DNA from: Saccharolobus solfataricus
Lineage (GTDB): Archaea; Thermoproteota; Thermoprotei_A; Sulfolobales; Sulfolobaceae
Direction of reading: 5' to 3'
NCBI RefSeq assembly: GCF_900079115.1
Contig: NZ_LT549890.1
Span: forward strand, 1,260,001-1,292,000
DNA length: 32,000 bases
A program made the position numbers and the translations under genes. A model generated the notes under the pieces. That model was not told the origin of the DNA, searched no databases, and was given only the letters and a program-made list of their open reading frames with translations. The stretch's first letter is position 1, and the number at the start of each line of letters is the position of its first letter. This document shows, in pieces, positions 1,467-31,549 of this stretch.

Positions 1467-2045
1467 ATGCTAAGATCAAAGGAAGCATGCCAAAGACTAG
1501 GAATATCCTATGCAACACTTAGAGAATACGTTAAGAAAGGATACATAAAACCAGTTATACTACAGAGCGGAAAATGGAGATTCAGAGAAGAAGACGTAGA
1601 GAGGCTAATGGGAATTATTAGAAAAAGAAAAGTAATACTTTACGCCAGAGTATCATCTTCCACACAAAAAGACGATCTGGCAAACCAAGTGAAATATCTA
1701 GAGGAACAAGTCAAAGAATACGACCAAGTAATCACAGACATAGGTTCCGGGTTAAACATGAAGAGAAAAGGATTCCTAAAACTACTGAAAATGATACTTA
1801 ACAACGAAGTATCACGCGTAGTTATTGCTTACCCAGACAGACTTGTTAGATTCGGCTTCGAAATCCTGGAGGAAGTGTGCAAAGCACATGGCTGTGAAAT
1901 AGTAGTAATAAACCAAGAGGACAAAGAAGAAGAATTGGTCGAAGACTTAGTCTCAATACTACTCTCATTCAGTGGGAAACTACATGGCATGAGAAGTCAT
2001 AAATACGAGAAGGTGAAGAAATGTGCTGAAGAACTTAAGGCTTAA
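1467..2045 (+). CDS. IS607-family OrfA: serine recombinase/resolvase-type transposase with an N-terminal MerR-like HTH
   Basis: The N-terminal HTH is ACQRLGISYATLREYVKKG. The catalytic serine motif is ILYARVSSSTQKDDL. It overlaps the downstream orfB. Confidence 0.9.
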   Translation: MLRSKEACQRLGISYATLREYVKKGYIKPVILQSGKWRFREEDVERLMGIIRKRKVILYARVSSSTQKDDLANQVKYLEEQVKEYDQVITDIGSGLNMKRKGFLKLLKMILNNEVSRVVIAYPDRLVRFGFEILEEVCKAHGCEIVVINQEDKEEELVEDLVSILLSFSGKLHGMRSHKYEKVKKCAEELKA

Positions 2046-3294
2046 GTCATTCCAACCAGAGGAAGAGTACGTGCACTTCACGTACTCCATCAAGAACGAC
2101 AAGAGGGAGGAGAGCAAAGAATTAATTAAAGAATACACAACACTACTACAGAAAGCAATTGACTACCTGTGGAGTTTAACGAAAATACAAGTAAGAAAGA
2201 ACGGTAATTACAAGATAACACTACCGAAGAAGAAGGAGGTGTACAAACCACTTAGGGATGAACTAGAGAAGATCAACCACCTTGCATCACACTACGTCGA
2301 TAAGGCAATTAATGACGCATTCTCGATCTTGAAGTCGTGGAGGAAAAGGGCTATAAAGGGGAGAGCTTCGATTGAAAAACCAAGGGTAAAGAAGGCTTAC
2401 GTTAGGATAAAGACGACTCTGAGGAAGGTTGTGGGGGAAAGCGTTAGAATAACGGTAAGACCTTATGAGTACATCACCTTCTCGTGGAGTAAGTCATGGT
2501 TCTCAAGAAGGGTTAGGGAGTTGGAACTTGGTGAACCTATAATTAAGGAGGAGAAAGTGTATTTGCCATTTCGTTACAAGTTACCCTGGGCAACACCATT
2601 AAACTTTCTGGCAATTGACTCCAACCTTTATACTCTAGATGCTTATGATGGTGAGAAATTCGTTACAATCTCACTAAAGCAGTTGTACTCCCTTAAGTAC
2701 TCTATGGAGGTGAAGAGGGCTAAGGTGCAATCATTTGCATCAAAGCACACGAAGAGGGGGAGAGAGTTGTTAAGGAAGTATTCGCATAGGGAGAGGAATC
2801 GCGTTCTGGACTTCGTTCACAAGTTTGTAAACGCGTTGTTGGACTTGTACCCCATGACGTTTTTCGCTGTGGAAAAGCTTAACAAAGAGAGTATGTTTGT
2901 AGACGCTAATGACTCTCTTTCGAGGAAGATTTCTAGGACTGTTTGGAGGAGTATACACAGAGTGTTGAAGTATAAGGCTCCGCTTTACGGTTCTTTCGTT
3001 AAGGAAGTGAACCCACGCTTTACATCTAGGTCTTGCCCCAGATGTGGGTTTGTATCCCGAAAGGTTGGTAAGACCTTTGAGTGTGAGAGGTGTGGGTTTA
3101 AGTTGGATAGGCAATTGAACGCGTCACTGAATATTTATCTCAAGATGTGCGGATTCCCTCACATCCGTGATATAGCACGGGTGTGGGTTGGGGTTATTCC
3201 GCTAATGGGGCGAAGAGGGATGAACGGGTTTCCCCGTGACTTTGGTGAAGCCCAAGGGCTGAGGATTGATATTAAATATCATGAAATCCCATGA
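2023..3294 (+). CDS. tnpB: IS607-family OrfB, TnpB-like RuvC/zinc-finger protein (start codon uncertain; GTG at 2023)
   Basis: RuvC-like motifs are LAIDSN, AVEKLN and LDRQLNASLNI. The zinc finger is CPRCG...CERCG. Size is 423 aa. Confidence 0.85.
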   Translation: MLKNLRLKSFQPEEEYVHFTYSIKNDKREESKELIKEYTTLLQKAIDYLWSLTKIQVRKNGNYKITLPKKKEVYKPLRDELEKINHLASHYVDKAINDAFSILKSWRKRAIKGRASIEKPRVKKAYVRIKTTLRKVVGESVRITVRPYEYITFSWSKSWFSRRVRELELGEPIIKEEKVYLPFRYKLPWATPLNFLAIDSNLYTLDAYDGEKFVTISLKQLYSLKYSMEVKRAKVQSFASKHTKRGRELLRKYSHRERNRVLDFVHKFVNALLDLYPMTFFAVEKLNKESMFVDANDSLSRKISRTVWRSIHRVLKYKAPLYGSFVKEVNPRFTSRSCPRCGFVSRKVGKTFECERCGFKLDRQLNASLNIYLKMCGFPHIRDIARVWVGVIPLMGRRGMNGFPRDFGEAQGLRIDIKYHEIP

Positions 3295-4544: not shown

Positions 4545-5338
4545 TCAACTTTTTTCTTCTTCTCTTTTTCTTAGCTCAAATCTCTTCAATTTACCGGTCT
4601 CCGTTCTAGGTAATTCTTTAACGAATTCTATTTCTCTAGGATACGCATATAAGGCTAGTCTGCTTTTTACAAATTGTTGAATTTCCTCTACTAGACTATC
4701 AGATGGAGAATATCCATCCTTTAGTACTATAAATGCCTTTATTACATTTCCTCTCAACCTATCCGGCTTACCTATTACAGCAACTTCTTGAACTGCGGGA
4801 TGTTGTAATATAATACTCTCTATCTCCTCCGGTCCCAATCTATAGCCGGAAACCTTTATTACGTCATCCCCTCTCCCTTTAAACCAAATATAACCATTTT
4901 GATCCATTAAACCTAGGTCTCCCATTAAGAACCAATGTCCTCTAAACTTCTTAGCGGTAGCTTCCGGATTCTTATAATATCCTAGAAATAATACAGGATC
5001 CTCTATCCTTACTGCTATTTCTCCAACTTGATTTATTACCTCATTACCTTTTTCATCAATGACTGCTATCTCATGACCGGGAGTAGGTTTACCTACAGAT
5101 CCTATCTTACGCCACATGGAGTTATTTACGGTCACTAGATTAGCCTCTGTACAACCATAAAATTCATTAACATTGGGGGATAACTCTTTCATTGCCCACT
5201 CAATCAAGTCTCCTCCCACAGCTTCTCCAGCACTACTAACTGCTCTTAATCTTAAATCGTAATCTCTCCTTGGACTACTAACTTCCTTCCTAATCATTCT
5301 TAAAGCCGTAGGGGGGATGAAAGCGCAAGTAACCTTAT
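4545..5338 (-). pseudogene. C-terminal part of an AMP-forming acyl-CoA synthetase/ligase split by ISC1316
   Basis: Adenylate-forming enzyme motifs are present: YGCTE, GEIAVR, GWFLMGDLG-like HWFLMGDLG, DDVIKVSGYRLGPEEIE and PRTETGKLKR. It joins in frame with 6646..7486 once 5339..6645 is removed. Confidence 0.85.
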
Positions 5339-5432
5339 AACAGACGGGGGTTCAAAGGGGGCGGAAAACTTCTCTTTGAGGCGGATCCCTTTGTAGAAAA
5401 GTTAAAATAGGAAAATAACGAAATACACATCA

Positions 5433-6608
5433 ATGCCCACCTTAGGGTTTCGCTTCCGTGCATACACTGACGAACAAACCCTTAGGGCGTTAAAGGCCCA
5501 GTTGAAGTTAGCGTGCAAAATCTACAACACCTTAAGGTGGGCAGACATATACTTTTACCAAAGGGATGGGAAAGGACTTACGCAGACTGAGTTAAGACAG
5601 TTGGCTCTAGATCTGAGAAAACAAGATGATGAGTATAAGCAACTCTATTCTCAAGTAGTTCAACAAATAGCCGACCGTTACTACGAAGCTAGACAGAGGT
5701 TTTTTGAAGGTTTAGCACGTTTCCCGAAAGAAAAGAAACCTCACAAATACTACTCCCTTGTCTATCCCCAGTATGGTTGGAAAATACTTCACGTTAGAGA
5801 AATAAGAAAAGGAAGCAAGAAGAAACTAATAACGCTTAAACTATCAAATCTTGGTACATTCAAGGTAATAGTTCACCGAGACTTTCCCCTTGACAAAGTA
5901 AAGAGGGTAGTAGTGAAGCTAACAAGATCTGAGAGGATATACATCACTTTCGTAGTTGATCACGAATTCCCCAAGTTACCTAACACTGGTAAGGAAGTGG
6001 CGATAGATGTTGGTGTAGAAAAGTTGTTAGTAACGTCAGATGGTGAGTATTTTCCTAATTTGAGACCTTACGAGAAAGCGTTATGGAAAGTGAAGCATCT
6101 ACACAGAGAACTTTCAAGGAAGAAGTTCCTCTCTAATAATTGGTTTAAGGCTAAGGTTAAGCTTGCTAGGGCTTATGAGTATTTGAAGAATCTAAGAACG
6201 GATCTTTACATGAAGTTGGGTAAATGGTTTGCTGAGCATTATGACGTTGTGGTGATGGAGGGTATTCACGCTAAACAACTTGTGGGTAAGTCCTTGAGGT
6301 CTCTGAGGAGGAGGCTGAGTGATGTGGGATTTGGTGAGTTGAGGGGTGTGCTGAAGTATCAGCTGGAAAAATACGGTAAGAAACTCATCCTAGTTAATCC
6401 TGCATACACTTCCAAAACTTGTGCTAGGTGCGGGTATGTGAAAAATGACTTGTCTCTATCTGATCGTGTTTTCGTTTGTCCCAACTGTGGTTGGATTGCA
6501 GATCGTGACTATAATGCTTCTCTTAACATCTTACGTGGATCGGGGTCGGAGCGACCCTTAGTGTGGAGCTCCGCCCTCTACCAGTACTCTGGCATGGCAG
6601 AGCTGTGA
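5433..6608 (+). CDS. tnpB: TnpB (OrfB) of the ISC1316-type element, 391 aa
   Basis: RuvC motifs are [15 protein letters not shown] and [11 protein letters not shown]. The zinc finger is CARCG...CPNCG. Confidence 0.9.
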
Positions 6609-6615
6609 AGCAGGA

Positions 6616-6642
6616 AGCTCCCTCATTTATGAGGGGGTAGCT
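6616..6642 (+). other. Subterminal right-end hairpin of ISC1316 copy 1 (agct-ccctca-ttta-tgaggg-ggt-agct)
   Basis: An inverted repeat read directly: a 6-bp stem ccctca/tgaggg with loop ttta, flanked by an agct/agct pairing. The identical structure is in copy 2 at 31520..31546. It sits 8 nt after the tnpB stop, where IS200/IS605 right-end hairpins and the omega/reRNA scaffold 3' end are expected. Confidence 0.6.
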
Positions 6643-6645
6643 CAC

Positions 6646-7486
6646 ATTTTTGCATTATGGCTAGGGTATCTTTAGGGGAGAATTTACCTAGCCTTCTATA
6701 TGCTACTATTGGCTTCCCGAAATAGAGGCTAGGTAGTATTACATCGCCTATAGCCCCAATCCAGCCCCAGTCCGCGGGTGTATAAAATACATCCTCTTCT
6801 CTTGGTGCCATTTCGAAATAGAGCTGATAGGCAGGAATATGTCCCAACAGAAATCTATGAGCATGAAGGACTCCCTTTGGTGCTCCAGTACTACCAGAGG
6901 TATAAAAGAGTTGGGCTGGATCATCACTCTTAGTATCTACCGCATAATGTACTCCAGAGGTCTTTTTAACCTCATCGAAATTAATTTCACTTTCATCTCT
7001 AGCTTCATCAGCAACTATAATCTTAGTTACGTTCCTTAATTTTTCTCTAACCTCTTTTCTTGAACCTTCAATTATTATAGCCTTGGCATCACTTTGTCTT
7101 ATTCTATATTCAACAGCCTCTACTCCCATTAATGGTGAAATCGATAAGCTAATTGCTCCAAGCCTATATAGTGATAAAATACTTATTACAGTTTCAACCC
7201 TGGGCTGTAAGTAAATACCAACCACATCCCCTCTTTTTACTCCTATTTCTCTTAAAATTGTTATTAAAGAATCGCTAAGACTCTTTAATTGGGCGAAAGT
7301 ATAAACGAAATGATCACCTTCCTCGTCTTCATAGTATATTGCGATGTTATCTCCTACACCTTCCTTAACCTTTCTATCTAATATCGATTCTCCTATATTA
7401 AAGCGAGAAGGAATATTCCATTTGAATGTTCTCACAAGTTCATCATAATTATGAAATCTAATTTCCCTCAAATCTACCTCGAGCAT
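6646..7486 (-). pseudogene. N-terminal part of the AMP-forming acyl-CoA synthetase split by ISC1316
   Basis: The AMP-binding P-loop motif is FYTSGSTGAPKGVLH. The ORF-track tail CELPPHK* is encoded by IS sequence. The native reading resumes at 5338 as ...AIMQKYKVTCAFIPPTALRMIRKE... Confidence 0.85.
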
Positions 7487-8830: not shown

Positions 8831-9103
8831 GAGGGTTTTGAAGAGAAGGATAACGTCTCACTTAGGTCAAGTAAAGGGACTCTAACTTGTTTCTAAACTT
8901 CTCCCAAGGGAGGACCTTATCGGCTTTGAGTAACAAATCTTTTTCAGTTGAAATTGCCTTTACCATAATATTATCTCGTCCCATTTTCTTATTAATATTA
9001 CTCATGAATAGCCATTTTAAACAACTTGGATAACGTCGCGTTTAGTTTCTCTCAATCAAGAGAATGTTTTTAAAAGCTAGTAATAATAAAGATATAATTG
9101 AAG

Positions 9104-9754
9104 ATGTCGCTGGCTGAAGAGATTAAAAAGGTCCTAAAGGAGAATCCATCAATTATAGTGGACGCGCTCGCGCAGAGACCAGAAATTCTCTATGATGTAT
9201 TAGTTAAGTTGATGCCATGGCAAGTTATAATTCGTGATATTGATGACCTAAAAAATCATACTCAAAAAATAGAAAAGGAGTTAGGGGAAGTAAAGGAGAG
9301 TCTGAAGAATTTTGTTACTAAGGAGGATGCTAAGAATTTCGCCACCAAGGACGACATAAAGAGGTTGGAAACTATCATTACTGGTTTAGGTGCGAGGTGG
9401 GGATTATTAAGTGAAGATGCGTTTAGGCAAGGCGTATATGAGATTATGAAATCTGAGGGAATTGTTGCTAAGAAGGAGCTCGTATACGATAAGACTGGTG
9501 AAGTATATGGCGAACCTTCTGATGTCGAATACGATTTAATGATAGAGGACGGAAACTTAGTAATGATAGAAATAACTTCAGCTATAAAAAGAGGAGATCT
9601 ACCCGTAATTAGGAAGAAGAAGGAATTTTATGAGAGAAACAAAAACGTGAAGATATCTAAAGTAATAGTCATAACACCTTTTTTACACGATAAATATCCA
9701 GATAGGCTAAAAGCAATGGCAAAAGATATGGGAATAGAAATAATTAATCCTTAA
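9104..9754 (+). CDS. Hypothetical protein: N-terminal coiled-coil region (DUF3782-like) plus a C-terminal PD-(D/E)xK-like nuclease-fold domain
   Basis: The ATG at 9104 is preferred; the ORF track starts at a TTG at 9098. There is a charged helical N-terminal half. The C-terminal SDVEYDLMIEDGNLVMIEITSAIKRG fits a D...E-x-(T/K) restriction-endonuclease-like core. The family assignment comes from memory of similar multicopy Sulfolobales proteins. Confidence 0.4.
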   Translation: MSLAEEIKKVLKENPSIIVDALAQRPEILYDVLVKLMPWQVIIRDIDDLKNHTQKIEKELGEVKESLKNFVTKEDAKNFATKDDIKRLETIITGLGARWGLLSEDAFRQGVYEIMKSEGIVAKKELVYDKTGEVYGEPSDVEYDLMIEDGNLVMIEITSAIKRGDLPVIRKKKEFYERNKNVKISKVIVITPFLHDKYPDRLKAMAKDMGIEIINP

Positions 9755-13181: not shown

Positions 13182-14400
13182 TCATGGGATTTCATGATAT
13201 TTAATATCAACCCTCAGCCCTTGGGCTTCACCGAAGTCGCGGACGTTCATCCTTCTCCGCCCCATTAGCGGAATAACCCCAACCCACACCCGCGCTATTT
13301 CACGGATGTGAGGGAATCCGCACATCTTGAGATAAATATTCAGTGAAGCATTCAATTGCCTATCTAACTTGAACCCGCACCTCTCACACTCAAAGGTCTT
13401 ACCAACCTTTCGGGATACAAACCTACATCTGGGGCAAGACCTCGAGGTGAGGTACGGGTTCACTTCCTTAACGAAAGAACCGTAAAGCGGAGCCTTGTAC
13501 TTCAACACTCTGTGTATACTCCTCCAAACAGTCCTAGAAATCTTCCTCGAAAGAGAGTCATTAGCATCCTTAAACATACTCTCTTTGTTAAGCTTTTCCA
13601 CAGCGAAAAACGTCATGGGGTACAAGTCCAACAAAGTGTTTACAAACTTGTGAACGAAGTCCAGAACGCGATTCCTCTCCCTATGCGAATACTTCCTCAT
13701 CAACTCTCTCCCTCTTCGTGTGCTTTGATGCAAATGATTGCACCTTAGCCCTCTTCACCTCCATGGAGTACTTAAGGGAGTACAACTGCTTCAGAGAGAT
13801 TGTAACGAATTTCTCACCATCATAAGCATCTAGAGTATAAAGGTTGGAGTCAATAGCTAGAAAGTTCACTGGTGTTACCCATGGTAACTTGTAACGAAAT
13901 GGTAGGTAAACCTTCTCCTCCTTAATTATAGGTTCACCAAGTTCCAACTCCTTAACCCTTCTTGAGAACCATGACTTACTCCACGAGAAGGTGATGTACT
14001 CATGAGGTCTTACCGTTATTCTAACGCTTTCCCCCACAACCTTCCTCAGAGTCGTCTTTATCCTAACGTAAGCCTTCTTCACCCTTGGTTTTTCAATCGA
14101 AGCTCTCCCCTTTATGGCCCTTTTCCTCCACGACTTCAAGATCGAGAATGCGTCATTAATTGCCTTATCGACGTAATGTGACGCAAGGTGATTGATCTTC
14201 TCCAACTCTTCCCTAAGTGGTTTGTATACTTCCTTCTTCTTCGGTAGTGTTATCTTGTAATTACCGTTCTTTTTTCTTACTTGTATTTTCGTTAAATTCC
14301 ACAGGTAGTCAATTGCTTTCTGTAGTAGTGTTCTGTATTCTTTAATTAACTCTTTGCTCTTCTCCCTCTCACTATTCTTGATGGAGTACGTGAAGTGCAC
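13182..14400 (-). pseudogene. tnpB: ISC1904 copy 2 orfB (TnpB-like), disrupted by a -2 frameshift
   Basis: It is split into the ORFs 13681..14400 and 13182..13733. Copy 1 has G5 (2756..2760) where copy 2 has the equivalent of G3 (ccc at 13710..13712). The 5' 16 codons are separated from the rest by the MITE. Confidence 0.85.
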
Positions 14401-14479
14401 TAGTATTTTGGAAAAGTTCTTAGACTATGATCTAGTGGTATATCCTTTGCCTAAAGCTATAGACTTTCTGAAGGCACTA
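14401..14479. mobile_element. SM1-like MITE (79 bp including flanking TA dinucleotides) nested between orfA and orfB of ISC1904 copy 2
   Basis: It is absent from copy 1 at the homologous position. Its ends tagtattttggaaaagttcttagac and (reverse complement) tagtgccttcagaaagtctatag resemble the ISC1048 termini in this window: tagtatttccggaaagttcttagac (right end, reverse complement) and tagtgtttccgaaaagtttatag (left end). It starts and ends with TA. Confidence 0.75.
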
Positions 14480-14497
14480 ACGTATTCCTCTTCCGGT

Positions 14498-15085
14498 TCA
14501 AATTTTCCAATTCTTAAGTTCTTCAGCACATTTCTTCACCTTTTCGTATTTATGACTTCTCATACCATACAGTTTCCCGCTGAACGAGACTAGTGCTGAC
14601 ATTAGGTCTTCAACTAGTTCTTCCTCTTTGTCCTCTTGGTTTAGTACTACTATTTCACAGTTGTGTGCTTTGCACACTTCCTCTAGGATTTCGAAACCGA
14701 ATCTAACAAGTCTGTCTGGGTAAGCAACAACTACGCGTGATACTTCGTTATTTAATATCATTCTCAACAACTTCAAGAACCCCTTTCTCTTCATGTTTAA
14801 CCCGGAACCTATGTCTGTGATTACTTGGTCGTATTCTTTGACTTGTTCCTCTAGGTACTTCACTTGGTTTACTAGATCGTCTTTTTGCGTGGAAGATGAT
14901 ACTCTAGCGTAAAGTATTACTTTTCTTTTTCTAATAATTCCCATTAGCCTCTCTATGTCTTCTTCTCTGAATCTCCATTTTCCGCTCTGTAGTATAACTG
15001 GTTTTATGTATCCTTTCTTAACGTATTCTCTAAGTGTTGCATAGGATATTCCTAGTCTTTGGCATGCTTCCTTTGGTCTTAGCAT
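14498..15085 (-). CDS. IS607-family OrfA serine recombinase, copy 2 (195 aa, apparently intact)
   Basis: Near-identical to 1467..2045, with the same MerR-like HTH and the YARVSSSTQKDDL catalytic motif. Confidence 0.9.
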   Translation of the reverse strand: MLRPKEACQRLGISYATLREYVKKGYIKPVILQSGKWRFREEDIERLMGIIRKRKVILYARVSSSTQKDDLVNQVKYLEEQVKEYDQVITDIGSGLNMKRKGFLKLLRMILNNEVSRVVVAYPDRLVRFGFEILEEVCKAHNCEIVVLNQEDKEEELVEDLMSALVSFSGKLYGMRSHKYEKVKKCAEELKNWKI

Positions 15086-17955: not shown

Positions 17956-18373
17956 AAAACTCCAATTAATGAATACTATAGCTAAAATCTATAGAGGATC
18001 AATAAAGGAGTTTAACAACAGGCTAGGTAAGTTAATGAACCTATCCTACTTGGACTTTTCAATACTTAAGGCCACATCTGAGGAACCTAGATCAATGGTT
18101 TATCTTGCTAACAGATATTTCGTAACTCAATCAGCAATAACTGCAGCAGTGGATAAATTGGAAGCCAAGGGATTGGTTAGGAGGATAAGGGACAGTAAAG
18201 ATAGACGAATCGTAATTGTGGAAATAACACCAAAGGGCAGGCAAGTGTTATTAGAAGCTAATGAAGTACTTAGAAATTTAGTAAATGAAATGCTAAGTGA
18301 TGTGGAAAACGTAGAAGAACTCCTAGAGGGTTTAAATAAAATACTATCTAGAATAGGAAGCTCCAAGGACTAG
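17939..18373 (+). CDS. bldR: MarR-family transcriptional regulator (BldR-type), co-operonic with the upstream MFS gene
   Basis: Winged-HTH MarR core: [66 protein letters not shown]. The symbol rests on the MFS-MarR arrangement next to the GH116/GH12/cpsA genes, as described for S. solfataricus. It has not been verified by search. Confidence 0.7.
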
Positions 18374-19093
18374 GGCTACCAATGTAATGATCCAAATAGT
18401 TCATTTCCGCCTTTCCATTATAGCCATTTATCCTTGATGGCTGGTCCCATACCATACCGTTTTTAACCAAATTATCCCACTCTTTCTTACAAAAGCTTAA
18501 GTCTCCAACACCTTTCTTATAAGCTAACCAGCAGATGGCGAAGACCATTCTAGGCCATGAGGAGTAAGTTTGAACACTCAAACCAACAATCTTACCATTA
18601 TCGTCCACGAGGTTAGGAACACAATGGGGAGAAGCGTTACCATTAAGCCTTATAATACTCTCTAACGCCTTCTTTATTATGTCCTCTTCTACAATATCCT
18701 CTAGTCCTACTAGTGTAGTAAACCACTCGCCATACAATTGGGCAAGAAATGACGCATTATCAACACTATCCCAAGCCTTAAAATACCTGCCATTAAACAT
18801 TCTTCTAAACGCTTCTCTGGCAGAACTTAGCTTTTCACTGATAAAATCAACATAATTACTATCACCAACCAACTTTGCAATCTCCCTCATAGCAATTAAA
18901 GACCCAATGAAAAGGGAGGAAGTATAACTATCATGACCCTTAATGATGGTAGCGTCAAAAGCATTGTCCATCTCTCCCTCCATGAATGGTAAATTCCCCT
19001 TACACTGCCTTAATTCCCAATCCATGACCTTAACTAGAATTGGGTAAACCTCTTTCAAGAATTCAATATCGTTAGTGAACTTAAAGTACCTAT
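18348..19093 (-). pseudogene. C-terminal part of a GH116 beta-glucosidase/xylosidase (GBA2-like) split by ISC1439
   Basis: Minus-strand reading is ...YRYFKFTNDIEFLKEVYPILVKVMDWELRQCKGNLPFMEGEMDNAFDAT.... It joins in frame with 20533..21787 once the IS and one TSD copy are removed. Confidence 0.8.
19085..19093. repeat. 9-bp target-site duplication AGTACCTAT, left copy (right copy at 20533..20541)
   Basis: Identical 9-mers directly abut both ISC1439 termini. Confidence 0.9.
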
Positions 19094-20532
19094 CAGTGGT
19101 GTTTCACCAATTTTACTCAAAATGATACAATTTCTATGGAAGAGAAAAATATCAGAGCGGAGTTAGAAAAATCGGCTTATTTCAACACAAGAAGCAAAAA
19201 ATTTTCATATTTGTTGAAGAAACTAACAGAAAACGAGTTTATATATAAAGAGTAATACCATTTGTCTAGTATTATCAATAGAGGAAAGTAGGTGGAAGGA
19301 CGAGATGAACAAGAAAAGGTTAAAGCGAGGGACTCCATAACTCCGTTATGCAAACCATACAAGTATCCAAAACGGAGCTGAAGTCCCTCGCTATAACTTT
19401 AGCAACAAACAATATTAACGTTATCTCTCAAGATCTAGACCCGGAAATAGTGAAAGCAGCACCATCCTTGCTAACCGGAAACAGAGGAAAATACTACTTG
19501 AAGGTAGTAAGACGAGGCGAGAAAGTAATTAGTAAAGGTCAGAGAACCTTCAAGTTCTACCCAATCTACAGAGAAGTAAAGGGAGAGATCAACGTAGTCG
19601 CTGTAGATGAGACCGGATTAACCGTGGGAGAAAAGGAACAAGAAAAAGCAGAGGGCTTTCTACTCTACAACTGGAAGAGAAAAGGAGTAAAGATGAGATC
19701 CTTGGACCTCGTATATCCCTTAAGGTTACCCCTCCTAGTGGAGGTAGCAGATTTGAGAAGCGACAGTCCATCACAGTTCCTACTCAGGAGCGTGAGGGAA
19801 GTAAGCCAATACATGGAAATAGATTACGTTGTAGCTGACGCCGGATTCTTGAACCTAGGGGTCATCAAGGAAATGCCCGTGAAGACCATTGTGAGAGGAA
19901 AGTCGAACTTGAAGGGATTCAAGGAACTATCTAACGTTCCATTAGTTGAGAAGAGATACGAGGTTAAGGACAGGGTTTACGTTGCGTATAGGGTCTTGAA
20001 ATTTGAAGGGCTTTATTATTACGATGTGGTTTACGTTAAGGGAAAGCCGAGGCACTTTATGTTCGTGACGAACTTCGAGGGAGATCCCTATGAACTGGCT
20101 GAACTCTATAGGTTGAGGTGGCAGGTTGAGGAGGGTTTCAAGGTTAGGAAGGCAAGGATAAGGTATGTTAGGAAGTTGAGTAATAAGATCTTCTTGTTCC
20201 TCTATTACACGGTTCTGGATTCTGCGTGGAATCTAGTGAATCATCTTCTCTTTAACTTCAAGTCCACGTGTAAGAAGGGTTTGTCCTTCGATTCATTCGT
20301 CAAGCTTCTCTAACTTTCTCGGTGTTCAGAGGAGACTATGCACGTCGTTTTCACCACGTGAGAAAAATTCAGAATTCTCCTCTTATTATTAGAATTGTAC
20401 GCTATATTTTTTGCAAATTATTTTAACATGTTATGTTTCATAATAATTTTATTGTTTTTCTCTATATCAATCTCTTTTTGAAAGTGCTAATATTATATCT
20501 TTCAAATGAAATAATTTGGTGAAACACCACTG
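19094..20532 (+). mobile_element. ISC1439 insertion sequence (exactly 1439 bp, perfect 17-bp TIRs, 9-bp TSD)
   Basis: TIRs are cagtggtgtttcaccaa (19094..19110) and ttggtgaaacaccactg (20516..20532). It is flanked by the direct repeat agtacctat and carries a single transposase ORF. Confidence 0.9.
19348..20313 (+). CDS. ISC1439 DDE transposase (321 aa)
   Basis: DDE-type motifs are IDYVVADAGFLNLG and the C-terminal YRLRWQVEEGFKVRK (Y-R-E-K signature). Confidence 0.85.
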   Translation: MQTIQVSKTELKSLAITLATNNINVISQDLDPEIVKAAPSLLTGNRGKYYLKVVRRGEKVISKGQRTFKFYPIYREVKGEINVVAVDETGLTVGEKEQEKAEGFLLYNWKRKGVKMRSLDLVYPLRLPLLVEVADLRSDSPSQFLLRSVREVSQYMEIDYVVADAGFLNLGVIKEMPVKTIVRGKSNLKGFKELSNVPLVEKRYEVKDRVYVAYRVLKFEGLYYYDVVYVKGKPRHFMFVTNFEGDPYELAELYRLRWQVEEGFKVRKARIRYVRKLSNKIFLFLYYTVLDSAWNLVNHLLFNFKSTCKKGLSFDSFVKLL

Positions 20533-21787
20533 AGTACCTATACACTAGGAGTATTAAGCTCGGATTCATATCCTTCCATCTGGGAGGAGAAGTAGTACCA
20601 TCAATGGGAGAATCTAAGGAATGATAGCCTAAATCATGAGGAACATAACCATCTTCTCTTATATGTCTAATCAACAACTTCAAAAACGATTTTTCTAACT
20701 CTGGAAACATAAGAATCACTGGAAGTGAGCCAAACTCATAACAAGCGCCTATAGTACCTAAATATGGACAGTTCTGTGGTGCTTCGTAAATCGCAAACCT
20801 ACCCTTCTCATCTAACCAAGTATTGGAGGAGAGGATATATGCGCTGTTTATTATGGCGTCTCCTAACCAGTCCTTTACGTTTACGATATTATGGAAAATT
20901 TTGTTTCTTAACTCATTAAAGTTGTCTAAAAAATACTTTGCTACTTCCAACGAATCTTTAAAGAAGTTCTCGTAATAATGCCCGTAGGGGTAAAACACGT
21001 GCTTACCAGTAAAGTACCAAGCGAATACGTATCTTATTTCATCCCCTTCTGAGTAGTTGGATATTAGAATACTTGCCGGATCATCCCTATGACCGGTTAC
21101 CTCATGAGGATCATCAGTTACTTCCTCCTCCCTATCCAGTTTCACCCAAGGTTCCTCATTTTCATATTGTGATAACCAGAAGTTTATTGTCTCGCTTGGT
21201 TTCCTCTTCAAGTTGTACTGCGTTATTATCTTACTTACATTCTCTGATATTAACGAGGTATTTCCCTTAGCTGGGTCGTAATCATTCGCCTTTATGTTTT
21301 TATGAATTACCCCGTTCCTTATTCTCTCATTTAATCTCCCAATGCTTACACTACCTACGATGTTTGGGAAGGAAATTGCAACTATCCCCTCCCTACTACC
21401 CTTAACTCTTAGACTAATTCCTACTGCAGGTAAGGACGAATTTTTCACGTCACGAGGGATTATTGATGAAAAAGCCTCCAACACTACTTCAACGTCGTCA
21501 TTCTTTCCCTTTACTGTAACAACAGGGTATTTACCTTCATAGAGTATTTCTCCACGAAACTCACTTACCTTGTATAATCCACTATCTTTCTGGAATAGGA
21601 ATCCCCTTTTATCTTTAGGCTTAATATATATGTGGAACCCCCTTAGTAACTTAATTGGATTTCCCCAATTGTTCCTTATTGTGATGTTTGTTATTCTTAC
21701 CTTATTATCAATTTCCAGTTTCCCAGTACCAATTCCTCCTAAGGGTACTCCAGCCACGATCCTATCCTTATCAGTATATGTAACCAT
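20533..21787 (-). pseudogene. N-terminal part (~418 aa) of the GH116 beta-glycosidase split by ISC1439
   Basis: MVTYTDKDRIVAGVPLGGIGTGKLEIDNKVRITNITIRNNWGNP is typical of the GBA2/GH116 N-terminal domain. The last 23 aa of the track ORF (SVVFHQIISFERYNISTFKKRLI) are IS-encoded. Confidence 0.8.
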
Positions 21788-27735: not shown

Positions 27736-28233
27736 ATGCAAGATTTGGTTCAAGCTTATAAGGAAGAGAAGAACGCGAGAATTAAGGAGAGGATTCTTGC
27801 AGTGAAGCTGCACGTAGTTGATGGTAAATCGGAGAAAGAAGTTTCGAAAATGCTTAACAAGGGCTATTCCACGATAAAATTGTGGATTGGCAAGTACAAG
27901 AAAGAAGGTCTTGATGGACTAAAGGACAAGCCCAGATCAGGAAGACCCAGAAAAGTAGAAGAGGAAAAGATAAAACAAATTCTGGAAGATAAGCCCCAAA
28001 AATACGGAATACAACAAGAATATTGGACAATGAAAACACTCAAGATAGCACTACAAGAACAAGGAATAGAATACAAGAAATCCAGACTATACGAACTAGT
28101 CCACGAACTAGGATACAACCTAGTAAAACCCAGACCTACCAACATCCAAGCAGAAAAGGACAAGTGGGAAGATTTTAAAAAAAAAAATAAAGAAATTGGA
28201 AAGAAAGGCACTGTTCTTTCTAGACGAGTGTAG
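27736..28233 (+). CDS. ISC1048 transposase, N-terminal HTH part (frame 1, up to the A11 run)
   Basis: Helix-turn-helix regions are VDGKSEKEVSKMLNKGYSTIKLWIGKYKKEG and PRSGRPRK. The frame ends shortly after the A11 tract. Confidence 0.8.
   Translation: MQDLVQAYKEEKNARIKERILAVKLHVVDGKSEKEVSKMLNKGYSTIKLWIGKYKKEGLDGLKDKPRSGRPRKVEEEKIKQILEDKPQKYGIQQEYWTMKTLKIALQEQGIEYKKSRLYELVHELGYNLVKPRPTNIQAEKDKWEDFKKKNKEIGKKGTVLSRRV
28177..28187 (+). other. A11 homopolymer at the junction of the two ISC1048 transposase frames (possible slippage/frameshift site)
   Basis: Frame 1 reads ...EDFKKKNKEIG...stop. The +1 frame is open across the run and reads ...KKKIKKLERKALFFLDECRTV..., which continues into the DDE domain. 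Confidence 0.6.
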
Positions 28234-28723
28234 GACAGTAATTAGCACGTCAATTAAGAAGGTTCTAGCTAAGGTTGGCAGTAAGCCCGTAATGCGCGTC
28301 AATATAGGTTTTTCCTCAATCTATGTTATTCTAGCTATAAACGCTTGGACCGGCGAAGTAGTGGTTTCTCTTGCTAAAAGGCCTAACTCTGAATCCGTTA
28401 AGTATTTCTTGAGGTACTTTAAGAGGCGTGTGGGTAGTGGTAGGGTTTACATGGTCATGGATAATTACTCTCCTCACAAGACTAAGGGTACGCTTGAGGT
28501 TTGTCGCAGGAAGGGTATTCATCCCGTGTTTACTCCTCCTTACTCGCCTGAGCTTAATATGGCTGAGGCGGTCTTCAAGTCCCTCAAGAACTACATGAGC
28601 AATAAAATATTCTATACGATAGAAGACGTTAAAAACTGTATTAAACAATTCTTTAAAGAAAATAAGTATAGATTTAATCTTAATGCAATAACATACCTAG
28701 GATTAGATAAAATTGAAGTCTAA
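28196..28723 (+). CDS. ISC1048 transposase, C-terminal DDE catalytic part (second frame)
   Basis: IS630-type DDE motifs are FFLDE, YMVMDNYSPHK and TPPYSPELNMAE. Confidence 0.8.
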   Translation: MERKALFFLDECRTVISTSIKKVLAKVGSKPVMRVNIGFSSIYVILAINAWTGEVVVSLAKRPNSESVKYFLRYFKRRVGSGRVYMVMDNYSPHKTKGTLEVCRRKGIHPVFTPPYSPELNMAEAVFKSLKNYMSNKIFYTIEDVKNCIKQFFKENKYRFNLNAITYLGLDKIEV

Positions 28724-28903: not shown

Positions 28904-30202
28904 TCATTGAGAGATAGTGTTCTTAAGAACTTCTAGTACTTTTGCGTAGTTGTACCTTTTATCTAAGGTTTTTATATCAACTTTTGGCTCTCCAGTAAGA
29001 GTGTTAGTAATCTTAACTACATTATTTCCATTTAGCTCAAGGATCAACTGCTTGTTAATTTTAGCATTAAAGCCATTCTTATAATTATAATATTGATGAT
29101 AATAACTTAAACAATTTAAGTATTCGCCCATGTCGAACCTATCGTGATAAGTCGTAGTCTTGAGAACGATAGGTTTAATCTCCGTTGAAGCGCTTAAACC
29201 CAATGACTGATCCATCGTGACAAGGTAAACATTAGTTGGAATCGCCGTTTTCAGCCTATTTACCTCTTTTTTAAGCTCCACATCTCCGTAGCTCTGATTT
29301 TTAAGCCTATCCTCTAATTGACTTATGGATGGGAGATGAACTTCCTTAAAGGTTTGTAAACCCAATATGAATTTTATTAAATTAGGATCCTTTTGGGTAC
29401 CTTGTGTCTTACTTTTCAGCTCCCTATATACTGAAGTTGACGGTATTAATCTAAACCCCTTCTCCCTATCGTAAAATAGTCTTTTGATCCTATTTCCTAA
29501 ACTTATATAAACGTTAGTATCGGCTACGAAGAGCGCATCTTCCTTCTTAATAATATCCAGTATCTTCTCCTCTTCCCGAAAGGTTCTCATACCACTTCTC
29601 GTTTTGCACAATTCTATAAATTCATCTCCCTTCTGATCATCAATGTAATTATTGTCACCAAGTTTTATCTTAACTTCCCCATGAAGGCTCAGAATATTAT
29701 AAAGAGCCGTTAGTGACTCAATATCAAGTTCTGAGTCCAGTTCGTCTCCCGCTGTAGTAAGAGGCAAGTGTCTAAACTTGATTTCTTCCCCGTTTCTCAT
29801 GTTAAATATCTTTATCTCATTAAAGGGTACGTAACCGAATACCCTGTACCCCTCATTCTCGTTCTTTAGATAAACATATCTTACCTCCCTAGCTTTAGAG
29901 TAGTTAGCGGTAGTTAATGCCATGTATTTTCTACCCGGCGTAATGTCTAAAACGTCCGGATCATATTCCGAAATTTTCTCCCTCCACGTCTTTACACCTT
30001 CACCTATTACAATGTCCTTTACTTCAACGTTAATTCCTAAGTAACTTAATGCCTTCTTTAAATTATCCTCTATCCTTTTATGTGGTGGAGATTCCCTTAA
30101 AATGATAATTTGTGTGGGCTTTAGGTCAGTTAATAGTTCTGTCATTATCGCGTTAATTGTTGTAACTGATTTGTCTGAACCAAGTGTAGCTAACTTTTCC
30201 AT
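28904..30202 (-). CDS. CARF-like sensor domain fused to a PIN-domain nuclease, plus an uncharacterised ~100-aa C-terminal extension (432 aa)
   Basis: N-terminus: KLATLGSD (strand 1 ending in Ser), QIIILRE, and DVLDITPGRKYMA, which fits the CARF [DN]x[ST]xxx[RK] / DxTHG-like signature. PIN acidic residues occur in order: FVADTNVY (D228), VYRELK (E261), YGDVELKK (D307), YLVTMDQS (D331). Confidence 0.6.
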   Translation of the reverse strand: MEKLATLGSDKSVTTINAIMTELLTDLKPTQIIILRESPPHKRIEDNLKKALSYLGINVEVKDIVIGEGVKTWREKISEYDPDVLDITPGRKYMALTTANYSKAREVRYVYLKNENEGYRVFGYVPFNEIKIFNMRNGEEIKFRHLPLTTAGDELDSELDIESLTALYNILSLHGEVKIKLGDNNYIDDQKGDEFIELCKTRSGMRTFREEEKILDIIKKEDALFVADTNVYISLGNRIKRLFYDREKGFRLIPSTSVYRELKSKTQGTQKDPNLIKFILGLQTFKEVHLPSISQLEDRLKNQSYGDVELKKEVNRLKTAIPTNVYLVTMDQSLGLSASTEIKPIVLKTTTYHDRFDMGEYLNCLSYYHQYYNYKNGFNAKINKQLILELNGNNVVKITNTLTGEPKVDIKTLDKRYNYAKVLEVLKNTISQ

Positions 30203-30241
30203 AAATATATATATATAACAAAAAGGTCTTTTTATTATTAT

Positions 30242-31549
30242 AACAGACGGGGGTTCAAAGGGGGCGGAAAACTTCTCTTTGAGATGGATCCCTTTGTAGA
30301 AAAGTTAAAAATAGGAAAATAACGAAATACACATCAATGCCCACCTTAGGGTTTCGCTTCCGTGCTTACGCTGACGAACAAACCCTTAGGGCGTTAAAAG
30401 CCCAGTTGAAGTTAGCATGTGAGGTATATAACACCTTAAGGTGGGCAGACATATACTTTTACCAAAGGGATGGGAAAGGGCTTACACAAACTGAGTTAAG
30501 ACAGTTGGCTCTAGATCTGAGAAAACAAGATGATGAGTATAAGCAACTCTACTCGCAAGTAGTTCAACAAATAGCTGACCGTTACTACGAAGCTAAGAAG
30601 AGGTTTTTCGAAGGTTTAGCACGTTTCCCAAAAGAAAAGAAACCTCATAAATACTACTCCCTTGTCTATCCCCAGTATGGTTGGAAAATACTTCAAGTTA
30701 GAGAAATAAGAAAAGGAAGCAAGAAGAAACTAATAACGCTTAAACTATCAAATCTTGGTACATTCAAGGTAATTATACACAGGGACTTTCCCCTTGACAA
30801 AGTAAAGAGGGTGATAGTGAAGCTAACAAGATCTGAGAGGATATACATCACTTTCGTAGTTGATCACGAATTCCCCAAGTTACCTAACACTGGTAAGGTA
30901 GTGGCGATAGATGTTGGTGTAGAAAAGTTGTTAGTAACGTCAGATGGTGAGTATTTTCCTAATTTGAGACCTCTTGAAAAGGCGTTATGGAAAGTGAAGC
31001 ATCTACACAGAGAACTTTCAAGGAAGAAGTTCCTCTCTCATAATTGGTTTAAGGCTAAGGTTAAGCTTGCTAGGGCTTATGAGCATTTGAAGAATCTAAG
31101 AACGGATCTTTACATGAAGTTGGGTAAGTGGTTTGCTGAGCATTATGACGTTGTGGTGATGGAGGGTATTCACGCTAAACAACTTGTGGGTAAGTCCTTG
31201 AGGTCTCTGAGGAGGAGGCTGAGTGACGTGGGATTTGGTGAGTTGAGGGATGTGCTGAAGTATCAGCTGGAAAAATACGGAAAGAAACTCATCCTAGTTA
31301 ATCCTGCATACACTTCCAAAACTTGTGCTAGGTGCGGGTATGTGAAAAATGACTTGTCTCTATCTGATCGTGTTTTCGTTTGTCCCAACTGTGGTTGGAT
31401 TGCAGATCGTGACTATAATGCTTCTCTTAACATCTTACGTGGATCGGGGTCGGAGCGACCCTTAGTGTGGAGCTCCGCCCTCTACCAGTACTCTGGCAAG
31501 GTGGGGCTGTGAAGCAGGAAGCTCCCTCATTTATGAGGGGGTAGCTCAC
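30242..31549 (+). mobile_element. ISC1316-type IS200/IS605-family element, copy 2 (TnpB only, ~1308 bp)
   Basis: It has the same termini as copy 1, is preceded by TTAT (30238..30241), ends in gtagctcac (31549), and has a right-end hairpin at 31520..31546. Confidence 0.85.
30337..31512 (+). CDS. tnpB: TnpB (OrfB) of ISC1316 copy 2, 391 aa
   Basis: About 96 percent identical to 5433..6608 (roughly 14-15 substitutions by eye), with the same RuvC and zinc-finger motifs. Confidence 0.9.

Follow-up and report, generated by a model that had tools for sequence, protein, structure and literature searches.

In this study we address a single gene in a stretch of 32,000 nucleotides from the archaeon Saccharolobus solfataricus (assembly GCF_900079115.1, contig NZ_LT549890.1, positions 1,260,001 to 1,292,000), which as a whole is called the window. 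The gene lies at 28904..30202 on the minus strand and begins with ATG, and in the open reading frame (ORF) listing of the window it is intact and complete, with 432 codons and a stop. It is a clear orthologue of SiRe_0806 and a member of the CARF_m3 CARF-PIN family, as seen by PADLOC, PDB, BLASTP and Foldseek searches. We consider it probable, at roughly 80%, that the gene encodes a stand-alone ancillary effector of type III CRISPR systems, with the mechanism proposed below. An original prediction, made from the letters of the sequence, had described a CARF and PIN architecture and a nuclease gated by cyclic oligoadenylates (cOA), acting in trans with type III systems. An orthologue crystallized with cyclic tetra-adenylate (cA4) lends support to this view, to the extent that it can be carried over to the window protein.

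Identity of the Gene and Its Family

The profile search suggested by the original prediction gave a full-length match to a known family. The PADLOC model PDLC01982, named CARF_m3--CARF_PIN, aligns residues 3-431 of the window protein with positions 2-391 of its 392 (E 1.6e-165, 549 bits), and a second model, PDLC01068 CARF_PIN, also matches (E 2.5e-54). PDLC01982 is the top model for SiRe_0806 too, at 584 bits. A PDB sequence search returned the entries 9jxw and 9jxx over the full length of the window protein (E 1.3e-106), and a cluster look-up identified the crystallized sequence as protein ADX84883.1 of S. islandicus REY15A, with a length of 417 amino acids. As titled, 9jxw is apo SiRe_0806 from S. 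islandicus and 9jxx is the complex with cA4. Both were released on 2025-07-23, and the depositors named the protein a PIN domain-containing protein. By BLASTP, the window protein and SiRe_0806 share 46% identity over the full length (E 5e-122). An NCBI entry for S. solfataricus, again called PIN domain-containing protein, agrees with the window protein at 100% identity, and the identical protein is encoded in at least two further assemblies, including P2 (AE006641.1, 1,199,398-1,200,696) and CP160827.2. A Pfam scan of the full-length protein returned a spurious DOT1 match only, without any PIN match.

The CARF-PIN family is already known: it has a model in a defence database, its crystal structures have been solved both apo and with cA4, and a mechanism of activation is in print. 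The title of a paper by Wang et al. (Nucleic Acids Research 2025, 53(14), gkaf744) states that cA4-induced dimerization of dimers activates a CRISPR-associated PIN nuclease, and its protein is presumably the SiRe_0806 of 9jxw, an assumption drawn from the matching subject and the structure release in July 2025. With the two structures and this title, the statement in the original prediction that no biochemical characterization was known is out of date. A preprint citing Wang et al. describes a cA4-dependent oligomerization by which the residues of the active site take up a new arrangement across subunits.

The likeness to SiRe_0806 extends from the family model to a four-part fold, an identical CARF loop and identical PIN acids. 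The window protein is 15 residues longer, with insertions at about 182-190 in the linker, about 296-303 in the helical insert of the PIN domain and about 370-382 in the C-terminal domain. An AlphaFold2 model of the window protein, a monomer built from 38 homologues, has a predicted local distance difference test (pLDDT) score of 90.9 and a predicted template modeling (pTM) score of 0.90. Foldseek aligned this model with 9jxw and 9jxx at E ~1e-51, with TM-scores of 0.84-0.88 for the query and 0.86-0.93 for the target, and a root-mean-square deviation of 2.4-3.5 Å over about 434 columns. The order of CARF, linker, PIN and C-terminal domain is common to the model and to SiRe_0806. Residue conservation was counted over the same number of homologues, 38, and the window protein keeps all 32 residues that are invariant in the family.

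The CARF Sensor Domain

The CARF domain is Rossmann-like and occupies about residues 1-135 (29798..30202, minus strand), as delimited by DSSP of the model, Foldseek and the PADLOC CARF models. DSSP assigns strands at residues 2-7, 29-36, 60-65, 84-86 and 106-112, and helices at 13-25, 45-54, 70-77 and 92-101. The alternation of strand and helix expected by the original prediction is therefore seen over residues 2-112 of the model, and the motifs it quoted are all present, namely KLATLGSD at 3-10, DVLDITPGRKYMA at 83-95, ADTNV at 227-231, YRELK at 259-263, GDVELK at 306-311 and VTMDQS at 328-333. There is a single match to the CARF signature [DN]x[ST]xxx[RK] in the whole protein, at residue 86 after strand 4, and it reads D86-I-T88-P89-G90-R91-K92 (29927..29947, minus strand). 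Across the homologues, D86, T88, P89, R91 and K92 are invariant (38/38) and G90 is found in 37 of the 38. The polar residue S9, which follows strand 1, is present in all 35 homologues that cover the position. The signature and the catalytic residues singled out by the original prediction are thus invariant or nearly so, more than expected by chance. The CARF assignment is supported by sequence profiles, two signature motifs and the fold.

After SiRe_0806, Foldseek matched the model to other CARF effectors, namely Cdn1 (8z4i, E 2e-6), Can2 (8q42, E 4e-6), Cad1 (9c77), Card1 (6wxw) and Cam1 (8t65). The Can1/Can2/Card1, Cdn1, Cad1 and Cam1 proteins have a similar CARF domain (E 2e-6 to 6e-3) and are likewise gated by cOA, but they differ in the effector domain, which is a PD-(D/E)xK nuclease, a deaminase or a membrane pore. 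Csx1 and Csm6 also join a cOA-sensing CARF domain to a nuclease and have an ancillary role in type III immunity. Unlike the CARF-PIN family, they carry a metal-independent HEPN RNase, which is activated within a dimer or hexamer and not by the pairing of dimers.

The PIN Nuclease Domain and the Family-Specific Parts

The PIN nuclease domain is divergent and spans about residues 216-345 (29168..29557, minus strand), as seen from invariant residues, the family profile against 1o4w and the Pfam family PIN_4. Its four acids are D228 (29519-29521), E261 (29420-29422), D307 (29282-29284) and D331 (29210-29212), all on the minus strand and identified by conservation. D228, N230, E261, H289, D307, E313 and K318 are invariant in the homologues, and D331 is retained in 37 of the 38. 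A profile of the family PIN region finds the PIN structure 1o4w; the match is weak (E 0.032) and spans the whole domain. In the alignment, DTNV, svEL, GDxxLIE and LITxDKEL bring all four acids into register with 1o4w. PIN_4 itself matches 13 of 23 family PIN regions, with a best E of 1.7e-5. We accept the PIN assignment as probable.

The VapC-type PIN toxins and PIN_4 proteins, such as AF0591 of PDB entry 1o4w, share with the family the four acids in their order and local context. Apart from the very low similarity, the family differs from them in that about 45 residues, forming three helices, are inserted between its second acid and its third. The CARF-PIN protein has no antitoxin, unlike the VapC toxins, and would be controlled by a fused sensor domain. 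An hhalign comparison of the PIN profile with two Sulfolobus VapC proteins gave no meaningful match.

Between the two named domains lies a middle or linker domain at about residues 136-215 (29558..29797, minus strand), delimited by alignments and the secondary structure of the model. The lengths of its insertions vary among homologues, and N169, C199, G204 and E211 are invariant. The C-terminal domain, at about residues 346-432 (28907..29167, minus strand), is specific to the family; in the model it consists of two helices, a three-stranded sheet and a terminal helix, with L347 and C364 invariant, and it is covered by the SiRe_0806 alignment. The original prediction had found nothing to match this end of the protein. 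This is borne out by Foldseek to the extent that no structural match besides SiRe_0806 was found, but the last ~90 residues belong to the SiRe_0806 fold as a conserved portion of it and are no add-on. Two cysteines, C199 in a linker helix (29605-29607) and C364 in the C-terminal domain (29110-29112), are present in 38/38 homologues, which raises the possibility of a disulfide or structural contact between them.

Proposed Mechanism of Action

Type III Cas10 makes cA4 on sensing viral RNA, and S. solfataricus has III-B and III-D complexes. We infer that the window protein binds cA4 from the title of 9jxx and the identical residues of the CARF loop. The ligand would be held by the N-terminal CARF domain through S9 and the D86-x-T88-P-G-R91-K92 loop, as conservation and the cA4-bound homologue structure suggest. 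By analogy with SiRe_0806, cA4 would then pair two dimers into a tetramer, and the tetramer, if the homology holds, would rearrange the PIN sites (D228, E261, D307, D331 and E313) across subunits and switch on a metal-dependent nuclease. Degradation of nucleic acid, with RNA as the likeliest substrate of the PIN domain, would slow either the virus or its host. Clearance of the cA4 would fall to the Crn1 ring nucleases Sso2081 and Sso1393, and the CARF-PIN gene would act in trans to the type III modules.

Genomic Neighborhood and CRISPR Linkage

Core cas genes, CRISPR repeats and tandem arrays are all absent from the window, and Rfam, tandem-repeat and CRISPR-repeat scans of it were empty. The CARF-PIN gene is surrounded by metabolic genes and many insertion sequence (IS) elements. 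The window reaches just 1.8 kb past the gene on the upstream side, which corresponds to increasing P2 coordinates, and no cas gene occurs in the 10 kb that follow in P2. Further on in P2 lies csx1 (377 amino acids), which starts near 1,231.8 kb and ends at 1,232,895. It is followed by the 103 repeats of GATTAATCCCAAAAGGAATTGAAAG that make up CRISPR locus A (1,233,466-1,239,959) and, beyond them, by csa1, cas4, crn1/Sso1393 (1,242,456) and the interference and adaptation genes of I-A(1). The P2 gene is about 31 kb from csx1, its nearest known cas-associated gene, counting about 21 kb in between, at 1,210,697-1,231,760, that were not covered. The absence of a cas neighborhood, as originally claimed, holds within the window and is overstated beyond it. 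It is not a true absence, because the main CRISPR-cas region starts just past the window edge, and the “orphan” status is partly an effect of that edge. The I-A(1), CRISPR A, csx1 and crn1 cluster of the host was seen directly; the type III modules of P2, three III-B and one III-D with cA4 signaling, are taken from the literature (PMC8699464). A probe with the Cas10 of M. sedula returned nine relatives, none of them from S. solfataricus.

Eleven loci of the family were sampled out to 10 kb from the homologue, and four have cas genes in this range, one directly beside a type III module. This last one is the M. sedula homologue, with Cas6 on one side, and five RAMP genes and Cas10 (an 886-amino-acid gene) on the other. 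The homologue of M. cuprina is followed by a HerA-NurA pair and then a type I-A module, the one of Stygiolobus caldivivus has a type I-A module 2.6 kb away, and the one of S. islandicus REY15A has a Crn1-type gene at 3.4 kb. The S. ohwakuensis homologue has a faint Cas_NE0113 match only. No cas gene was found within this distance in S. solfataricus P2, Sulfolobus sp. E5-1-F, S. shibatae, S. acidocaldarius SUSAZ, A. manzaensis or a metagenome contig of 76 kb. A stand-alone placement is normal for the family, since the sampled loci are mostly without nearby cas genes. The same genome offers a precedent in Sso2081/Crn1, since 81 kb separate it from its closest cas cluster (PMC8699464).

Some of these loci show further features. 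At the M. sedula locus (L004, 8421-9521), Cas6 is called as fragments of 41 and 214 amino acids in one assembly and Cas1 is present as a 93-amino-acid fragment only, which suggests that the adaptation and processing region is partly degraded beside an apparently intact type III module. The HerA-NurA pair of M. cuprina adjoins the homologue and stands between it and the type I-A module (L019, 11261-13877), and a similar pair is about 3.5 kb from the S. shibatae homologue (L009, 3500-6532). In S. acidocaldarius SUSAZ, a gene of the metallo-beta-lactamase fold lies directly downstream of the homologue (L010, 11435-12073) and has a weak match to Pfam Anti-Pycsar_Apyc1, a family of cyclic-nucleotide phosphodiesterases; this neighbor could be a signal-degrading partner.

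Distribution of the Family

A word-indexed search gave 38 homologue clusters, and nearly all the named ones are from Sulfolobales. The CARF_m3 CARF-PIN protein is found in Saccharolobus, Sulfolobus, Metallosphaera, Acidianus, Sulfurisphaera, Stygiolobus and Ca. Aramenus. When 1.84 billion representatives were searched exhaustively with a profile, just 52 proteins were found at E<=1e-3, of which about 18 are full-length close relatives. The family is confined to Sulfolobales-type archaea, and type III systems are reportedly common there. A second tier of proteins, with 433-462 amino acids, belongs to the sister model CARF_m1--CARF_PIN (PDLC01973). These proteins also have an N-terminal CARF and a PIN domain, and both domains are homologous to those of the family (family profile E 1e-13 to 1e-30). 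The sister model is nevertheless a separate hidden Markov model of 465 positions, which matches the window protein over residues 47-181 only (E 8e-15).

The architecture was catalogued in 2014 (PMC4012209), and a survey of 2018 listed Msed_1167 in cluster 104 as “CARF+PIN”, linked to type III A/B/D (PMC6546367). ST0035 of S. tokodaii is another CARF-PIN protein from the Sulfolobales. Its membership in the CARF_m3 family was considered and rejected as unproven, the CARF_m3 member of S. tokodaii being BAB65936.1. By its locus tag, ST0035 lies near the Cas10 gene STK_00120, and it could be a member of the CARF_m1 sister family. That the CARF-PIN gene came from a plasmid or a virus was likewise rejected, as none of the plasmid or phage records yielded a homologue by tblastn.

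Flanking Insertion Sequences and the Promoter

The CARF-PIN gene has IS elements on both sides, as the original prediction had said; their sizes fit the ISC1048 and ISC1316 that it named, and the names themselves are unconfirmed. On the upstream side is an ISC1316-type, TnpB-only element of 1312 bp (~30238-31549, plus strand), recognized by the Pfam match of its TnpB and delimited by alignment with a second copy in the window at ~5335-6645. The same TnpB gene, intact in the window, is interrupted in P2 by a DDE_Tnp_1 IS. On the downstream side is an IS630-type transposase (27736-28723, plus strand), which Pfam divides into a helix-turn-helix ORF (27736-28233, HTH_33/HTH_32) and a DDE_3 ORF (28196-28723). 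These two ORFs overlap by 38 nt in different frames, which suggests programmed frameshifting or a frameshift mutation, and no terminal inverted repeats were found for this element at the settings used.

A predicted TATA-like box, ATAATAAAAAG, was read at 30228..30238 on the minus strand, with its midpoint ~32 nt upstream of the start codon. The spacer left between the IS and the start reads TAATAAAAAGACCTTTTTGTTATATATATATATTT-ATG on the minus strand. The equivalent box, ATAATAAAG, occupies the corresponding place upstream of the gene in Sulfolobus sp. E5-1-F whose product is 70% identical, in the form ATAATAAA(G). The ATAATAAA box is probably the TATA box of a near-leaderless CARF-PIN mRNA. 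The IS appears to have replaced everything upstream of it, from about -36, and if a transcription factor B recognition element (BRE) or regulator sites existed further upstream, their place is now taken by IS DNA.

Weighing of the Evidence and Alternative Explanations

Several observations weigh against the effector interpretation. All activity assigned to the window protein is transferred from an orthologue with 46% identity. The PIN domain is very divergent and atypical: the PIN region of the window protein scores below the PIN_4 cut-off of 21.9 bits (16.1 bits, E 0.014, profile positions 1-123 of 132). Residues 205-432 were also modeled separately (pLDDT 86.8), and among the top 50 Foldseek matches this model found SiRe_0806 only (E 1e-17), with no structure of a classical PIN reaching E<1. 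The structure prediction and search put forward by the original prediction recovered the CARF fold, and for the PIN part only SiRe_0806. The long helical insert probably lowers the scores of such comparisons. ST0035 showed a weak cA4 cross-link and no induced RNase (PMC6546367, 2018). Six of the 11 family loci lack a cas gene within 10 kb, and a seventh has the faint Cas_NE0113 match only. Finally, the ISC1316-type element ends about 36 bp upstream of the start codon, right at the predicted TATA box, and may affect the expression of the gene.

A more elaborate version of the effector model holds that the S. solfataricus copy is no simple duplicate of SiRe_0806. In this version it is a cas-unlinked effector shared by all four type III modules, its expression perhaps rewired by the ISC1316-type insertion, and its divergent PIN domain could have a substrate specificity or redox control that has not been described for classical PIN toxins. 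The ideas of specificity and redox control build on the three-helix insert, the invariant E313, H289 and K318, and the invariant pair of Cys199 and Cys364. Two differences from SiRe_0806 bear on placement and expression, as the nearest known cas-associated gene is about 31 kb from the window gene (in P2) and 3.4 kb, a Crn1-type gene, from SiRe_0806, and an IS abuts the promoter of the window gene only. We regard this version as unlikely.

A quite unlikely reading of the gene is that of a relic, silenced or in decay, which the IS 36 bp upstream has cut off from its regulatory region and which has no role any more in the immunity of this strain. The position of the ISC1316-type terminus at the TATA box and the loss of all sequence upstream of about -36 speak for it, as do the extensive remodeling of the region by IS elements, which split the GH116 and acyl-CoA synthetase genes of the window, and the hit that the neighboring TnpB has itself taken in P2. 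Yet the ORF is intact and of full length, with every family-invariant residue kept, and at least two further assemblies carry the protein at 100% identity. The A/T-rich box shared with the E5-1-F homologue is also retained, at a distance that fits a leaderless transcript.

We find it very unlikely that the main role is that of a ring nuclease or signal sponge, in which the CARF domain degrades or sequesters cA4 to damp type III signaling and the PIN domain is secondary or regulatory. S9 after strand 1 has the position of the catalytic Ser/Thr of CARF ring nucleases, an NCBIfam scan of the full-length protein gave one faint match, to Crn1 (E 0.035, residues 56-106), and Foldseek matches the ring nucleases Sis0455 (7z55) and Sso2081 (7ygl/7ygh) at E ~3e-3 with a probability of 1.0. 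The Crn1 proteins Sso2081 and Sso1393 share the CARF fold and the host with the window protein, and Sso2081 is likewise far from cas genes, but they have no nuclease effector domain and degrade cA4. The invariance of the PIN catalytic acids throughout the family makes a ring-nuclease-like regulator less likely and speaks for a working nuclease; the title that we assume to cover SiRe_0806 likewise speaks of a cA4-activated nuclease. The self-limitation of many CARF effectors by cA4 degradation favors the ring-nuclease role, and the two dedicated Crn1 enzymes that S. solfataricus already has count against it (PMC8699464). An intrinsic cleavage of cA4 could, moreover, coexist with the effector function.

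A CRISPR-independent stress toxin, whose CARF-like domain would sense another ligand (for example RNA ends with 2',3'-cyclic phosphate, as RtcR does) and control a PIN RNase, is highly improbable: most sampled family members are not beside cas genes, the window copy stands among metabolic genes and IS elements, and divergent CARF domains with non-cOA ligands are known, as in the case of RtcR, but a homologue was crystallized with cA4 (9jxx), the ligand-loop residues are identical in the window protein and SiRe_0806, four of the 11 loci are cas-adjacent with one direct type III neighbor, and members of the family come only from Sulfolobales-type archaea, in which type III systems are reportedly common.

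Other Features of the Window

Two other genes of the window are interrupted by mobile elements. A GH116 beta-glycosidase gene (18348-21787) is split into ORFs at 18348-19058 and 20462-21787 on the minus strand, with a DDE_Tnp_1 IS at 19348-20313 between them; in P2 the gene is intact and encodes 663 amino acids (L001, 18752-20743), so that the window must represent a strain or lineage of S. solfataricus other than P2. A gene of the AMP-binding, acyl-CoA synthetase type (4545-7486) is split by the second ISC1316-type copy, with the N-terminal part at 6623-7486 and the C-terminal part at 4545-5297. Two IS607-type units, each with a serine resolvase and TnpB, are present; the one at 1467-3294 is intact, and in the one at 13182-15085 TnpB is broken into ORFs at 13182-13733 and 13681-14400.

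Besides the CARF-PIN gene, the window has a sole defence-library match, which is a protein of 218 amino acids at 9098-9754 (plus strand) with DUF3782 and a PD-(D/E)XK domain (PDDEXK_10). It matches PADLOC C3a181 at E 1.3e-9, a small, low-support “type III accessory” cluster of Shah et al. 2018 (Tpen_1359, labelled diadenylate cyclase).

Significance of the CARF-PIN Gene for S. solfataricus

A reading of the sequence alone recognized the CARF-PIN effector correctly from its motifs. The IS against its promoter represents a natural test of a change in expression from strain to strain. If the effector model is true, S. solfataricus has a second cA4-responsive nuclease beside Csx1, placed outside the cas clusters as Crn1/Sso2081 is, and this second nuclease should be counted in models of cA4 signaling in S. 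solfataricus.

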